DNA of 64,000 nucleotides from Minisyncoccia bacterium (GTDB taxonomy: Bacteria; Patescibacteriota; Minisyncoccia; SW-4-49-11): NCBI GenBank assembly GCA_044356725.1, contig JBIKVS010000004.1, forward strand, positions 1 through 64,000, read 5' to 3'. This document shows, piece after piece, positions 16,702 through 41,261 of the stretch. The notes under the pieces were generated by a model. It had not been told where the DNA came from, did not search any database, and saw only the letters and a list, made by a program, of their open reading frames with translations. Within the stretch, counting starts at the first letter, position 1, and every line of letters begins with the position of its first letter. The position numbers and the translations under genes were made by a program.

Positions 16702-16730
16702 TTGACAAAAGTTAGGTTTTGTGATATAAT
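16702..16730 (+). promoter_or_regulatory. Consensus sigma70 promoter with extended -10
   Basis: TTGACA-17 nt-TATAAT with TG immediately upstream of the -10. Confidence 0.8.
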
Positions 16731-16764
16731 ATAGAACATAAAATTGCTCTTTTAGGAGGGTGTT

Positions 16765-16923
16765 ATGATTACTCAAATCATTGATTCACTTAAATATGAT
16801 CGTAAAACTCTGCTGTTGAGATATAAAGCCAACCCAGACGAATACAATCGTAACAGATTGGTTCGCTGTGAGACACAGCTTGAAGAACTTGTATCTCGAG
16901 TTCCCAAGCCTTCACCTTCCTGA
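16765..16923 (+). CDS. 52-aa orphan protein (below ORF-track cutoff)
   Basis: AGGAGG RBS, ATG, MITQIIDSLKYDRKTLLLRYKANPDEYNRNRLVRCETQLEELVSRVPKPSPS*, terminator at about 16943-16970. Confidence 0.65.
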   Translation: MITQIIDSLKYDRKTLLLRYKANPDEYNRNRLVRCETQLEELVSRVPKPSPS

Positions 16924-17045
16924 GTGGTTTACACTCAAATACAACCGACTACCACTGGCAGCCGGTTTTTCATACAATAATACTTTGATTTTATATAATA
17001 AAGAGCCAGCTTATTTAAACTGACTTAATTATGGAGAGTAAAGTA

Positions 17046-36839: not shown

Positions 36840-36924
36840 GCTAGGGTGGCGGAATGGTAGACGCAACGGACTTAAAATCCGTCGGTGATTAAACACTGTG
36901 AGGGTTCAAGTCCCTCTCCTAGTA
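36840..36924 (+). tRNA. tRNA-Leu(TAA)
   Basis: GCTAGGG/TCCTAGT stem, ACGGA-CTTAAAA-TCCGT arm, long variable arm. Confidence 0.92.
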
Positions 36925-37095
36925 CAAATTATAGAAACAAAAAAGCAATAGTCAGTTTTGACTATTGCTCAGGACTTGAAGGTCGGAGCGATGTGTGAGT
37001 TTGTGCGAAGCACAAGGCGAACACCGCGAGACGGGGTCGCGAGAATTTTCCGTCAGGAAAATTACTTGTGACCAAGTCCCTCTCCTAGTACAAAT
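36907..37095. mobile_element. Miniature element at the tRNA-Leu 3' end
   Basis: 23-bp direct repeat CAAGTCCCTCTCCTAGTACAAAT at 36907-36929 and 37073-37095; inverted T-loop GGACTTGAA 36972-36980; GGGGTCG plus hairpin core. Confidence 0.65.
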
Positions 37096-37125
37096 AGAGA
37101 AGCAGTCCGTTTGGACTGTTTTTTA

Positions 37126-37445
37126 ATTCCCCTCTTGAAGGGTGTCCCAAAGGGGCGGGGTGGATGGATTTATAAAACACAGGTGACATAAGGTCGCCCC
37201 TACGGGATGAGTGTAAAGCAAATGTCATTGCCTGCTTTAGGCAGAGATGTCTCCATTGAGCGACCGAAAATACTGTCCTCCCTTGGGGGAGGTGTCACGA
37301 AGTGACGGAGGAGGACAAAAAGCTCAAGTTTCAAAATACTTCCACCCCGTCCAGCGAAGCTGTCCACCCCCTCAATTTATCTCCATCCCTACGGGAGGTA
37401 AACCCGTAGGCAGAGAGGGGAATTTAAGGCAACTGAAAGATCGTT
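37126..37445. repeat. Mosaic of families B, C, A and B with nested insert
   Basis: Multiple palindromes shared with 26146-26345 and 43997-44104. Confidence 0.75.
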
Positions 37446-37465
37446 CTCTCCTAGTATATCTTTAA

Positions 37466-37562
37466 AATATAGACAAAAGTTTCAAAATATGGTATGTTTC
37501 TGATTGTACGGACTCTAGAGCAATTTAGAGTCAAATTTTCTCTACCCTGAGGAGGGGTTATG
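37466..37562 (+). promoter_or_regulatory. Conserved promoter + hairpin leader + RBS, copy 1
   Basis: TAGACA-17-TATGTT, GACTCTAGA-GCAA-TTTAGAGTC, GAGGAGG; nearly identical to 38146-38243. Confidence 0.85.
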
Positions 37563-38009
37563 TCTAACTCTCAATCGGATATAGATCCATTTGAAGAAGC
37601 ACAATTTTTCATTCCCAACTCATCATACTTTAGTAGATTGTATTGTTTGGATTATATACTTACAAAACTTGATAGGGAACATAGAAGAATGGCTTTAAAT
37701 ATTTCTGATGACTCTAAACTTGCATTTGAAGGTGCTAATATACAACCTCCTGAGTATATTTATATTAAATTCATTGAAGAGTGGGAGTTAAGTGATAGTG
37801 ATGTCCTGCACTTTGATTATCAGAGAAGAGGAGGAATTATCCCCAAATGGGGTCCTGGTGAAAAGTCGAAAGAATCACTTTTGCACATTGGGGCAATTAT
37901 AAGGTTAAATCTTTTATATCAAATTAGAATGATAGGGCCAATAGATCCTAGCCCAAATGACTGTGAGTGGAGAAGAGTAGGAAAGATTGAAGTGGTAAAG
38001 CAAAGTTAA
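37560..38009 (+). CDS. Orphan hypothetical protein (cassette 1)
   Basis: 149-aa ORF with strong RBS and its own terminator. Confidence 0.75.
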   Translation: MSNSQSDIDPFEEAQFFIPNSSYFSRLYCLDYILTKLDREHRRMALNISDDSKLAFEGANIQPPEYIYIKFIEEWELSDSDVLHFDYQRRGGIIPKWGPGEKSKESLLHIGAIIRLNLLYQIRMIGPIDPSPNDCEWRRVGKIEVVKQS

Positions 38010-38024
38010 TAAGTGTTTTCATTT

Positions 38025-38066
38025 CCCCCGCGTGCGATGCGGGGGTTTTTATTTTCGACTATTTAT
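38025..38066 (+). terminator. Intrinsic terminator, copy 1
   Basis: CCCCCGCGTGCGATGCGGGGGTTTTTATTTTCGACTATTTA, repeated at 38615-38656. Confidence 0.85.
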
Positions 38067-38145
38067 TCACTCTCTCCACCACTTCCTAAACTTAAAGTAT
38101 AGGAGGAACTTAAAGCCCTACGACAAGAATAGATTATCTCTTCGC

Positions 38146-38243
38146 AATATTGACAAAAGTTTCAAAATATGATATGTTTCTGTTTGTCCAGGCTCTAAAG
38201 TAATTTAGAGTCAAATTTTCTCTACCCTGAGGAGGGTTTTATG
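38146..38243 (+). promoter_or_regulatory. Conserved promoter + hairpin leader + RBS, copy 2
   Basis: TTGACA-17-TATGTT, GGCTCTAAA-GTAA-TTTAGAGTC, GAGGAGG. Confidence 0.85.
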
Positions 38244-38603
38244 TTGAATGTTCATTCGGCTGCATCAGCTGCAGAATTTTTTGTAGTAGATAGAATAACT
38301 GGGAAAGCTAGAATATATGACTTATCTTGTAAAGAGACTAAGGAAACAAGAATATTTTGGCTTCAAACTAGTCCTCTGAAAACAGAGTATATAGTTCTAT
38401 TTTGCGATGTAACTTTAGACAATGGCAGAACAATTTCAGGTGGTGGTGAAATATCTATTATAAAAGAAGAGTTTGATAAACTCGAAATTAATGATAATGT
38501 AGAAATAGGATTTGAGATACGTCAGAATTTCGGAGAACCTAGGAAATTATACCCACTTACATTAAAGTTTATAGATAGAGAAGGAGCTCTCGATCTTTCT
38601 TGA
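38241..38603 (+). CDS. Orphan beta-rich hypothetical protein (cassette 2)
   Basis: 120-aa ORF with no visible similarity to cassette 1, same flanks. Confidence 0.75.
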   Translation: MLNVHSAASAAEFFVVDRITGKARIYDLSCKETKETRIFWLQTSPLKTEYIVLFCDVTLDNGRTISGGGEISIIKEEFDKLEINDNVEIGFEIRQNFGEPRKLYPLTLKFIDREGALDLS

Positions 38604-38606
38604 TTA

Positions 38607-38656
38607 CCCCCCCCCCCCCGCGTGCGATGCGGGGGTTTTTATTTTCGACTATTTAT
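38607..38656 (+). terminator. Intrinsic terminator, copy 2, with expanded poly-C
   Basis: C13 tract leading into the same hairpin and tail as copy 1. Confidence 0.85.
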
Positions 38657-38705
38657 CTATAATTTGGTATAATAAATATACTTCAAATTAAGAAAATATA
38701 CTGTT

Positions 38706-41261
38706 ATGCCCTCGCCGATGATGACTCAGTTTTATGAAATCAAAAAATCTTATCCGAATGATATTTTGTTTTTCCGCCTTGGGGACTTTTATGAAATGTT
38801 TGCAGAGGATGCGAAGTTAGCAGCTCCAATACTGGATTTAGTGCTAACAGCAAGAAAGAATACAGTAGATGGTAGTATTCCAATGTGTGGGGTACCTTAT
38901 CATTCATCTACTCAATATATTCAAAAACTAATCAAAGCTGGACATTCCGTAGCTTTATGCGAACAACAAGGATCAGCTCAAGATACTAAAGGTTTAGTCA
39001 CTAGAAAGGTGGTAAAAGTCATTACTCCGGGGACAGCCTTATTTGAGACTGAGACAAGTGAATCAAGATATATAGCTAGTATTTATAAACAGAAAGATAT
39101 TATATATATCGCTTTTGCTGACTTAGGGACTGGAATTTTTGAAGTGGGGGAATTTAGTTCTCAAGAATTAAAAGATATTTTAAGTTCAAGACAAGTCAAA
39201 GAAATTATATTGCCACAAAATAGTGATTTGAGTGAAGAATTAAAAGATTTGGGTATAAAATTAAGTATAGAGTCAAAGTGGAACTTTCAATTAGAGCGGT
39301 CTATTGAGACTTTGACTAAACATTTTGGAGTTACTAGTATGTCCGGATTCGGTTTTGAAATTGATGATTTACGGTTAGCCCCAGCAGGAGCTTTACTTAA
39401 TTATCTTATTTATACTCAACAAGAGGATTTGAAGCATATTACAAAATTGCAAAGCATGAAGTTATCTCGATATATGCGATTAGATGCCCAAACCATTCAA
39501 AATTTAGAGTTGTTTTATCTATCAAGAGCTAGTCAAAAGGGAAAAAGTTTTTATCAAGCTATTAATTATACTAGAAATCCTCTGGGATCTAGAATGTTGA
39601 AAAACTGGATATTAGCTCCATTATTAGATATTAAGTCAATTCAAACTCGTCAGAATCATATACAAAATTATATTCAAAACCCTAGTAAAATTGACCAAAT
39701 TAGAGATTTATTAGCTCAAATTGCTGATATTGAGAGACTATTAGCTAGACTTTCTAGTAATGTCGGCGGACCTAGAGATATGTTATTATTATCCAAAAGT
39801 TTTGAATATATTATTAAAGTTTTAGAGATTGATAATGAGGATTATATAAAGTCTGCTATAAAGGCTTTGAGTCAATTAAACCCTCTACAACAAGAATTGC
39901 AAAAAGCTCTACAAGAAAATGTTCCAATATTAGCTCGGGATGGTGGATTCGTGGCCAAAGGTTATAGAGCAGAAATTGATGAGTTACTAGATTTAAGTCA
40001 AGGAGGTAAGGAGTGGCTACTAGAATTACAAACCAAAGAACAAGCGAGAACCGGGATTAATTCTCTTAAAGTTAAGTATAATAAGGTCTTTGGATATTAT
40101 ATAGAAATTAGCAATGCTCATAAGAATCAGGTTTTACCAGACAATTATATCAAAAAGCAAACTTTAGCTAATGCAGAGCGATATATTACTCCTGAATTAA
40201 AAGAATTTGAGGAAAAGATATTAAGTTCAGAGTCTCAACTATTAAATTTAGAACAAATAGTTTTTGAAGAATTAAGACAAGCTATTATAGCCGAGGCGGA
40301 ACAAATTTATACTATTGCTGAGACTTTAGCCTATATTGATTGTATACAAGCTGGGGCCAAATTAGCCCTAGATTGGAATTATATAAAGCCTATAATTACT
40401 AAAAAATCTAAATTATATATAGAGGCCGGCCGACATCCAGTTTTGGAGCAGTTAATTACAGATTATATACCTAATAATTGTAAACTCACCGAACCAAATC
40501 ACTCTCTAATGTTAATTACAGGTCCTAATATGGGAGGTAAATCTACTTATATTAGGCAAGTAGCTTTGATTGTGCTTCTAGCTCAAATTGGATACTATGT
40601 CCCAGCTATTGAGGCTGAGATTGGAATAGTGGATAGAATTTTTACTCGAGTAGGAGCTTCGGATAATATGAGTGAGGGACAAAGTACTTTTATGGTGGAA
40701 ATGCTTGAAGTTGCAAATATTTTGCATAATGCTACCAAATCTAGTTTGGTTATTTTAGATGAAGTCGGTAGAGGCACTTCTACTTATGATGGGATGAGTA
40801 TAGCCAAGGCTTTGATTGAATATATTCATAATACAATTGGAGCTAGAACTCTATTTGCGACTCATTATCACGAATTATTAAATTTGGAAGCAGAATTAGA
40901 GGGAGTGGTGAATTATCAGGTTTTAATTCAAGACTCTGAGGATGATATTATTTTCCTACATCGTATTGAACAAGGTGGAGCTGATAAAAGCTATGGAATT
41001 GCCATTGCTAAATTAGCAGGATTTCCAATAGATGTGCTAGAATTAGCTAAAGGAGCACTTATTCAATATGAACAAAAAAAGTCTCAATTATCTTTTTTAC
41101 CAACAAATAATCTAAAATCGCCTCAAGATCCAGCAATAAACCCAAAAATTGAGAAATACAATAATTTATTACAAAATCTGCACTCTTATAATTTGAATAA
41201 TTTAACTCCGATGCAGGCATTATCTATATTAGATGACTTACAAAAGAATAATCCACTATGA
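38706..41261 (+). CDS. mutS: DNA mismatch repair protein MutS
   Basis: FFRLGDFYEMF, MCGVPYH, TGPNMGGKST, DEVGRGTST, FATHYHEL. Confidence 0.98.
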   Translation: MPSPMMTQFYEIKKSYPNDILFFRLGDFYEMFAEDAKLAAPILDLVLTARKNTVDGSIPMCGVPYHSSTQYIQKLIKAGHSVALCEQQGSAQDTKGLVTRKVVKVITPGTALFETETSESRYIASIYKQKDIIYIAFADLGTGIFEVGEFSSQELKDILSSRQVKEIILPQNSDLSEELKDLGIKLSIESKWNFQLERSIETLTKHFGVTSMSGFGFEIDDLRLAPAGALLNYLIYTQQEDLKHITKLQSMKLSRYMRLDAQTIQNLELFYLSRASQKGKSFYQAINYTRNPLGSRMLKNWILAPLLDIKSIQTRQNHIQNYIQNPSKIDQIRDLLAQIADIERLLARLSSNVGGPRDMLLLSKSFEYIIKVLEIDNEDYIKSAIKALSQLNPLQQELQKALQENVPILARDGGFVAKGYRAEIDELLDLSQGGKEWLLELQTKEQARTGINSLKVKYNKVFGYYIEISNAHKNQVLPDNYIKKQTLANAERYITPELKEFEEKILSSESQLLNLEQIVFEELRQAIIAEAEQIYTIAETLAYIDCIQAGAKLALDWNYIKPIITKKSKLYIEAGRHPVLEQLITDYIPNNCKLTEPNHSLMLITGPNMGGKSTYIRQVALIVLLAQIGYYVPAIEAEIGIVDRIFTRVGASDNMSEGQSTFMVEMLEVANILHNATKSSLVILDEVGRGTSTYDGMSIAKALIEYIHNTIGARTLFATHYHELLNLEAELEGVVNYQVLIQDSEDDIIFLHRIEQGGADKSYGIAIAKLAGFPIDVLELAKGALIQYEQKKSQLSFLPTNNLKSPQDPAINPKIEKYNNLLQNLHSYNLNNLTPMQALSILDDLQKNNPL

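Follow-up and report, generated by a model that had tools for sequence, protein, structure and literature searches.

A 64,000-nt stretch of the genome of a Minisyncoccia bacterium (the window; contig C10, positions 1 to 64,000) carries, between a tRNA-Leu gene and mutS, two adjacent units in which near-identical predicted promoters, leaders and terminators enclose two small open reading frames (ORFs), A and B, that resemble each other hardly at all. This tRNA-Leu to mutS position is a fixed slot in one genus of tiny lake-water Paceibacteria, which belong to the candidate phyla radiation (CPR). Thirteen distinct slots hold eight families of cargo ORF (A to H), all of them orphans restricted to the genus. 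The locus is probably a hypervariable single-gene slot, the content of which changes by homologous recombination combined with fast ORF evolution at a tRNA-adjacent hotspot. The genome of 897 kb (G000; 20 contigs, approximately 33% G + C) was compared with the genomes of relatives (G002 to G012) and with metagenome contigs (L052 to L055). L055 is a twin of the G012 locus, and the distinct loci number 11, or 12 counting L055.

The original prediction, made from the letters of the window, had described two units sharing a 5′ and a 3′ module around dissimilar ORFs, and both parts of that description were borne out. A repeat finder aligned the 5′ modules over 105 nt at 88% identity (37455–37559 and 38135–38239), and a blastn-short search of the whole genome aligned them over 91 nt at 91.2% identity (37466–37556 and 38146–38236; E = 4e-28). 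By the same two methods, the 3′ modules (38025–38066 and 38615–38656) were identical at all 42 positions (E = 2e-18). Because of these E values, and because no third copy of either module was found by blastn-short in the whole 897 kb, both repeats are far above chance; the only other match in the genome was to the promoter part alone, over 27–30 nt at C10:80479-80509. Diverged paralogy of A and B had been named as the finding that would overturn the prediction, and no relationship between them emerged from BLASTP (E = 0.068), from hhalign of the two family profiles (probability 0.3%) or from a profile hidden Markov model (HMM) of family B, which scored ORF A at −0.6 bits, a value that 791 of 2200 shuffled control sequences equaled or exceeded. 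Only the first six or so codons look alike by eye (MSNSQS and MLNVHS).

Distribution of the frame and probable exchange of its cargo

A covariance model built from 13 leaders was applied, with a cutoff of E ≤ 0.1, to a family set of 17 genomes, 12 of the genus and five others. It gave nine matches in seven genomes, all at the tRNA-Leu/mutS locus, and nothing else, and by this model the frame was absent from the five genomes outside the genus. BLAST of leader and terminator against the same 17 genomes located both modules in congeners. A degenerate leader pattern matched four metagenome contigs (five sites, beside mutS). A search of 185,579 species genomes with this pattern returned only contigs of the same six relatives, and no viral contig matched. 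Thus, the expectation that leader and terminator would be found elsewhere with different cargo was confirmed in seven of the 12 genomes of the genus and in four metagenome contigs. The gene order was the same everywhere: O-antigen-ligase-like gene, yraN, (cfa), tRNA-Leu, slot, mutS, mutL.

The number and state of the slots vary among lineages. Two slots are present in G000 and G007, two together with a promoter-only remnant in L053, and one in G003, G010, G012, L052 and L054. The single ORF is broken by an in-frame stop at codon 6 in G004 and by a frame-shifting duplication in G009, and G005 retains a terminator remnant only. The gaps of G008 (117 nt), G011 (133 nt) and G006 (281 nt) contain no leader and represent empty sites, in which a different small terminator hairpin precedes the same mutS promoter; the G002 locus is cut by a contig end. 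Family A occupies slots in G000 and G010, family B in G000 and L053, C in G003, E in G007, F in G012 and its twin contig, G in L053, and H in L054. Family D is found in G007 and, broken, in G004 and G009, with a 28%-identical relative in L052.

Comparison of close relatives places the change of content at the boundaries of the ORF. G003 and L053, the MutS proteins of which are 97% identical, share 95% identity up to the ATG and 93% again from the stop codon and terminator, with cargo C in one and cargo B in the other. Homology breaks off and resumes at these points also between G007 and G010 (MutS 96% identical) and between G000 and L052. In a mutS tree, the two clades that lie farthest apart both contain cargo A, whereas B is present in clades II and III, and D with its D-like relative in clades I, II and IV. 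Furthermore, the synonymous divergence (dS) between G000 and G010 is 0.64 for cargo A and 2.22 for the adjacent mutS, and A therefore reached one of these lineages long after they had split. Nor do the leaders strictly track either the cargo or the host; that of G010, for instance, has its nearest match in G004 (91%). The frame is under constraint, for the slot 2 leader of G000 is 96% identical to the L053 leader and the corresponding cargo only 43%.

From these results we conclude that both processes act, fast evolution of ORFs and movement of whole ORFs between lineages. Homologous recombination in the flanks is enough to produce the pattern. No recombinase was found between yraN and mutL in the genome stretches examined, and the only tyrosine recombinase (PF00589) of the genome is on another contig, C19, in keeping with the earlier remark that the window contains no integrase. 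The idea of a reusable frame in which cargo ORFs are swapped or captured has accordingly to be divided. Swapping is supported by 13 slots, eight families and breaks at start and stop codons; capture from elsewhere is not borne out, because the frame is not dispersed but confined to one locus in one genus.

In the mechanism that we propose, a near-consensus sigma-70 extended −10 promoter, a leader with a GNRA hairpin, a strong Shine-Dalgarno (SD) sequence and a GC-rich intrinsic terminator ahead of the mutS promoter would form the constant frame. The ORF from start codon to terminator would behave as an idiomorph, different lineages holding small soluble orphans that are either non-homologous or diverged beyond recognition. 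Lineages would exchange these ORFs by homologous recombination in the tRNA/leader region on the left and in the terminator/mutS promoter region on the right, and tandem arrays of two or three slots would result from unequal crossing-over at the repeated modules (leader and terminator). In some lineages the cargo has decayed or the site is empty. The hairpin near the mRNA 5′ end may act as a stabilizer, and hairpin and rare strong SD together would give high constitutive expression.

Several observations weigh against this account. Recombination is deduced from the pattern, no event, donor or intermediate having been observed, and four public read runs yielded no contig joining alternative cargo to the flanks of this genome. 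Homologous recombination leaves the first entry of non-homologous ORFs at such exact boundaries unexplained, and differential loss from an ancestral multi-slot array may account for some cases. Divergence rather than replacement accounts for part of the diversity. The HMM of family B reached cargo E (10.4 bits; none of 2200 shuffles as good) and cargo G (5.5 bits; 11 of 2200), and the ratio of nonsynonymous to synonymous divergence (dN/dS) of B is 0.86. The promoter, terminator and stabilizer roles are consensus-based only. Covariation in the leader hairpin is modest, since 15 of 500 shuffles reach the observed score and a double change occurs in one pair only. Pfam, PHROGs and PADLOC returned nothing at curated thresholds for A, B and nine other cargo proteins, and AlphaFold2 models were unusable, with a predicted local distance difference test (pLDDT) score of 40.5 for B (four sequences) and 40.8 for A (seven sequences). 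Of the public runs listed for this genome, 23 are of DNA and one of RNA. An exact 151-nt contig from an RNA library covers 37557–37707, the start of ORF A, but is only a weak hint because DNA carry-over is possible.

Judged from their sequence properties, the cargo ORFs are real genes. They encode soluble proteins of 92–149 aa with no long hydrophobic stretch and an isoelectric point of 4.1–9.6. Their GC content is 31–39%, with native-like GC at third codon positions, and 11 of the 13 are open from an SD-preceded start to the terminator. Homologues are few, seven for ORF A, two for ORF B and eight for C among 5.8e9 proteins, all at least 67% identical. The ORF B relative in the mutS-proximal slot of L053 is approximately 41–43% identical. 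A profile of family A, searched against 1.84e9 representatives, recovered its own 50%-identity cluster and one marginal match (E = 7e-4). The latter, a 1424-aa MBG/YDG repeat protein, was judged to be inflated by repeats, its score being summed over five of them.

In-place divergence, capture and other explanations

The locus might instead have arisen by tandem duplication of one ancestral small beta-barrel gene followed by extreme divergence, with diversifying selection on the coding part and with flanks kept alike by selection and gene conversion. We regard this as unlikely overall, though by no means negligible, and some of the data speak for it. The first six or so codons appear alike by eye across families (MSNSQS, MLNVHS, MFNAHS, MSNLIR and MSNELS), and similarity is graded, with identities of 98%, 67% and 41–43% within B and of 28% (E = 0.002) between D and its D-like relative. 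The high dN/dS of B and the HMM matches to E and G point the same way. Because of these matches, E and G probably belong with B to a single deeply diverged family, and fast in-situ divergence therefore contributes to the diversity; the same HMM reached none of A, C, D, F and H. Sub-threshold hints of an OB-fold (RsgA_N, E = 0.026; DUF4131, E = 0.044) and structure models also fit a barrel ancestor. In the ESM Atlas, the model of B (pLDDT 0.75) is nearest to small beta-barrel families at a template modeling (TM) score of approximately 0.6, and the poor model of A (pLDDT 0.52) is nearest to CusF/DUF5666-type barrels at TM 0.37–0.41, all of its neighbors being below TM 0.5; both serve as leads only.

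Against divergence in place stands, besides the lack of any link between A and B in the three comparisons mentioned above, the absence of cargo nucleotide similarity in any frame next to flanks that are 91–100% identical. Between families, blastn and tblastx gave nothing at E < 0.001, the best result being B against E by tblastx at E = 0.001, and frame-shifted homology is therefore excluded at this sensitivity. Cargo A is under purifying selection (dN/dS 0.20, G000 versus G010) and, as its dS indicates, is less diverged than mutS. Cargo lengths are spread over the whole range given above. In particular, unrelated cargo occurs at 96–97% MutS identity, which leaves too little time for divergence in place.

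A bolder version of the preferred reading, an ORF-precise slot that works without an integrase, would make the locus a dedicated exchange device of CPR bacteria. Any small ORF could enter between the fixed promoter, hairpin and SD on one side and the fixed poly-C/terminator junction on the other, the two hairpins or the poly-C tract perhaps being joining sites of a novel mechanism, and highly expressed, lineage-specific compatibility proteins, directed at hosts, phages or competitors, would rotate through the slot. We consider it rather improbable. If true, it would be a new system of gene capture and variation, distinct from integrons, shufflons and diversity-generating retroelements.

Site-specific capture by a system of known type, or a miniature integrative element (integron-, tycheposon- or rAID-like) inserted 3′ of tRNA-Leu with the hairpins as recombination sites, is quite improbable, even though several features recall it. 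The slot follows a tRNA gene, the 23-nt 3′ end of tRNA-Leu is repeated 166 nt downstream, and cassette 1 is immediately preceded by a third, partial copy of 11 nt. Empty sites (G006, G008 and G011), array-like tandem units and a variable poly-C tract at the 3′ junction could be read likewise. However, the lone PF00589 protein is encoded on a different contig and the yraN–mutL stretches examined lack a recombinase; the tRNA repeats enclose a partial tRNA copy of approximately 150 nt, not the cassettes; integron cassettes lack promoters of their own, whereas every unit here has one; at 7–9 bp, the hairpins are too small for attC-like sites; and the frame was never found at a second locus.

The layout of promoter, small orphan and terminator also fits the definition of phage morons (PMC3594210), and the att-like repeat by the tRNA would suit a remnant prophage or morons left behind by a degraded phage at a tRNA attachment site. 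The Atlas feature matches of B, which are at chance level, are to viral hypothetical clusters (score 0.80). This origin is nevertheless very unlikely, because viral contigs gave no leader match, neither A nor B matched a PHROG, no phage gene was seen at the locus in any genome, cargo composition is native-like, and the frame is genus-wide at a housekeeping junction. An assembly or binning artefact, namely a collapsed or chimeric repeat in what is a metagenome-assembled genome, is barely credible: public short-read contigs do break at the repeated modules, but the same architecture recurs in seven independent genomes and four metagenome contigs, and exact DNA contigs from other runs bridge 38037–38231 (terminator 1, spacer and leader 2) and 38061–38605 (spacer through ORF B), which argues against such an artefact.

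Anatomy of the frame and its leader RNA

The features of the locus are listed in Table 1. Both cassette promoters are among 16 sites in the genome that match a strict extended −10 pattern, and the second terminator overlaps the mutS promoter.

Table 1. Features of the tRNA-Leu to mutS region, in window positions
Feature	Position	Strand	Evidence or remark
tRNA-Leu(UAA)	36840–36925	+	Left anchor; ARAGORN, Rfam; upstream of the slot in 11 of 11 loci reaching that far
Second copy (direct repeat) of the final 23 nt of the tRNA-Leu region	37073–37095	+	Repeat family D3, 23/23; att-like remnant closing the ~150-nt partial tRNA copy
GC-rich filler with genome-dispersed short repeats, outside the frame	37100–37450		blastn-short
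Predicted cassette 1 promoter: TAGACA, 17-nt spacer with TGn extended −10, TATGTT	37470–37498	+	Consensus scan, 9/12 matches plus TG
Leader hairpin 1: 9 bp, GCAA (GNRA) loop	37511–37532	+	Pairing kept in 13 of 13 leaders
SD GAGGAGG, cassette 1	37549–37555	+	4 nt ahead of ATG
ORF A, 149 aa, orphan	37560–38009	+	Soluble, acidic, purifying selection
3′ module 1: GC-rich stem and T-run of a predicted intrinsic terminator, then 11 nt that recur before the mutS promoter	38025–38066	+	Repeat, consensus scan
Predicted cassette 2 promoter: TTGACA, 17-nt spacer with TGn, TATGTT	38150–38178	+	Consensus scan, 10/12 matches plus TG
Leader hairpin 2: 9 bp, GUAA loop	38191–38212	+	Sequence, folding, 13-leader comparison
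SD GAGGAGG, cassette 2	38229–38235	+	5 nt ahead of ATG
ORF B, 120 aa, orphan	38241–38603	+	Fast-evolving, predicted beta-rich
Poly-C tract, 13 C	38607–38619	+	Cargo/terminator junction; length differs among slots
3′ module 2: predicted terminator plus 11 nt, running into the mutS promoter	38615–38656	+	Repeat, consensus scan
Predicted mutS promoter: TCGACT, 17-nt spacer, TATAAT with TG	38645–38673	+	Conserved right flank; homology between genomes restarts here
mutS	38706–41261	+	Right anchor; tblastn synteny in all loci

The two hairpins of the window have exactly the sequences originally given for them. That the leader hairpins differ only in structure-preserving ways, as originally noted for the two copies in the window, holds for all 13 leaders. 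The 9-bp helix is paired in 117 of 117 cells, compared with at most 51% of cells in slid controls, and one of its pairs alternates between A-U (5), G-C (5) and G-U (3). Non-Watson-Crick cells number 17, all of them G-U and none A-C, and this fits a structure in sense-strand RNA, not a DNA palindrome. Twelve of the 13 loops are of GNRA type. The comparison thus supports the view that the first hairpin would fold as RNA on the transcribed strand. It begins approximately 12 nt after the −10 box, some 5–10 nt past the transcription start that the box implies, and is followed by an A/U-rich spacer, then ACCCUGAGGAGG, then the ATG 4–5 nt on.

Stem-loops at the 5′ end are familiar stabilizers of mRNA, as in the ompA 5′ untranslated region (UTR) and in Bacillus transcripts that combine a 5′ stem-loop with a strong SD. 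The leader is like these in having a stem-loop near the apparent 5′ end followed by a strong SD and in keeping its pairing through G-U and compensatory changes, and by this analogy we infer that it may be a 5′ stabilizer; it differs in that its transcription start is predicted from the −10 box only and that no Rfam family fits it. Strong SD sequences are rare in the genome, as the original prediction had supposed: by a crude count over ORFs of at least 200 aa, with the first ATG taken as the start, an SD core (GGAG, GAGG or AGGAG at −20 to −4) precedes 22 of 519 and GAGGAGG one of 519. The 3′ end of 16S rRNA was not found in the assembly using a short motif.

A second stem that would occlude the ribosome-binding site had also been proposed, but this riboregulator is not supported by the comparison of leaders. 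It shows no covariation, its 5′ arm (alignment columns 35–39) falls mostly in columns 35–37, which are gaps in 11 of the 13 leaders, and RNAalifold predicted no second helix from the 13 leaders. A 3-bp pyrimidine/purine version of the stem has no double changes. A CCCU/AGGG mini-hairpin, which would hold half of the SD, appears in three of five single-sequence minimum free energy folds and pairs in 77% of cells; its variants disrupt pairing, and no compensatory change is present in the leader alignment. The leader hairpin itself was flagged by a scan as a terminator or attenuator, and this was rejected because in most genomes AAA separates the stem from a T-run of only 3–4 nt.

At the other end of the frame, the predicted terminators (38025–38055 and 38615–38645) consist of a 9-pair stem with seven G-C pairs followed by TTTTTATTTT, as in an intrinsic terminator behind a stop codon, and the terminator core is kept behind all 11 intact cargo ORFs. 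The poly-C run counts five C after ORF A, compared with 13 after ORF B. Read by eye in 10 of 11 printed junctions, it ranges from 5 to 13 C, sits exactly at the junction of cargo and terminator, and is interrupted by an A in L052. The tract may be slippage-prone, or it may be a trace of how the junction was formed.

Relation to known systems and elements nearby

The closest pattern is that of replacement flexible genomic islands of aquatic bacteria, here scaled down to one ORF. Islands of the O-antigen type (PMC4033161) have a fixed position, content that is non-homologous between lineages, conserved flanks, a proposed exchange by homologous recombination in the flanks, and incongruence with the core phylogeny. 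Different content at the same position is what we found at 11 distinct loci, in 13 slots with eight families, and flank exchange is indicated as a pattern only, by the mutS tree, dS and the breaks. Unlike those multi-gene clusters, however, the unit is one ORF of 92–149 codons; the breaks fall at the start codon and terminator, with the promoter, 5′ UTR, SD and terminator belonging to the conserved flank; the slot may be duplicated in tandem or empty; and the cargo has no assigned function.

Unrelated sequences between sharp conserved flanks are also known as idiomorphs or ancient balanced alleles, for example at fungal mating-type loci and pherotype loci, and the mutS-rpoS region of enterobacteria is polymorphic. 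The slot shares with these the sharp flanks and a hypervariable spot beside mutS, but no recognition or signaling role is assigned to it. That the slot borders on mutS may be mere coincidence, the tRNA gene being a more likely cause of the hotspot.

Morons (PMC3594210) consist of one small gene with its own promoter and terminator between unrelated genes, and each brings its own signals, whereas here a single type of promoter and terminator recurs with one gene after another. Individual promoters and terminators and a dispensable gene (absent from G006, G008 and G011) are common to both, and a phage or prophage location is not seen at the slot. Integron cassettes and the rAID-1 arrays of orphan immunity genes in Bacteroidales (10.1101/471110) resemble the slot in their tandem unrelated small ORFs, repeated intergenic modules and variable content in close relatives. 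In contrast to both, the locus has no IntI/XerD-type recombinase and at most three units, and a promoter precedes every unit, where integrons rely on a single Pc. No attC-like site was seen, the only 3′ structure being a terminator stem of 7–9 bp (no attC model was run). As for rAID-1, none of the cargo is similar to a known immunity family, and no Pfam or PADLOC family was assigned at threshold to the 11 cargo proteins. A limited search of the open-access literature gave no description of such a locus in CPR bacteria; a paper on CPR hypervariation (PMC6851277) concerns a surface protein with PTD repeats that is unrelated to the slot.

The tiny, streamlined genomes of CPR bacteria or Patescibacteria vary between strains in ways that for the most part have no explanation. 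At this locus, a constant expression apparatus would see its ORF replaced by another at a MutS difference of only 3–4%, and would thus show in nature how regulatory and coding parts can evolve as modules apart from each other. The eight orphan families are probably highly expressed and may be under frequency-dependent or diversifying selection, which makes them candidate factors toward hosts, phages or competitors in uncultured organisms; immunity or defense under frequency dependence is our guess at their function. The set of promoter, leader and terminator could be used for expression in Paceibacteria, and the locus could serve as a strain marker in lake metagenomes. Should exchange need more than homologous recombination, a new mechanism of gene capture would be involved.

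The region between the tRNA gene and the first cassette is itself composite. The segment 36926–37095, 3′ of tRNA-Leu, contains a hairpin and a partial tRNA copy of approximately 150 nt that runs from the anticodon arm to the 3′ end. The copy is GC-rich, has three internal hairpins and is conserved across the genus (also in G012, G006, G002, G010 and G005), and neither ARAGORN nor Rfam made a call on it. The 23-nt repeat pair, which does not bracket the cassettes, and its module are also present in G012, G006 and G002. What sets G006 apart from the empty site of G011 is, in essence, this direct-repeat-flanked module. The copy may be a scar of integration or may represent a small RNA (sRNA) derived from the tRNA. 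The filler that follows (approximately 37100–37450) gave 77 blastn-short matches at E ≤ 1e-3, its own place included, on 16 of the 20 contigs. A palindromic 44-nt unit at 37273–37316 has approximately 48 further copies and a unit at 37340–37370 approximately 17, and relatives share filler at the locus. In a genome of 33% G + C, these units look like repetitive extragenic palindromic (REP) or miniature inverted-repeat transposable (MITE) elements.

Other additions occur in relatives. An sRNA-like unit, absent from the window, is repeated upstream of the cassettes in G007 (L046) and in L053; in L053 it is on the reverse strand at approximately 105–330 and 1640–1880 of the oriented copy, between slots. 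The unit includes a consensus promoter and a terminator of its own, as well as a closing stem that encloses a variable interior, and in L053 and L046 it had no match in Rfam. In G012 (L049) and L055, the first 16 codons of mutS recur as a 5′ fragment (75% identical) approximately 560 nt upstream of the real mutS, with an opposite-strand ORF of 122 aa between the two; this duplication points to illegitimate recombination at the right flank. Elsewhere in the window, a unit of similar style occupies 16702–16925. Its strict extended −10 promoter is at 16702 and is followed by a short leader, AGGAGG and, from 16765, an ORF of 52 aa; this gene belongs to the few others in the genome that have a strong SD.

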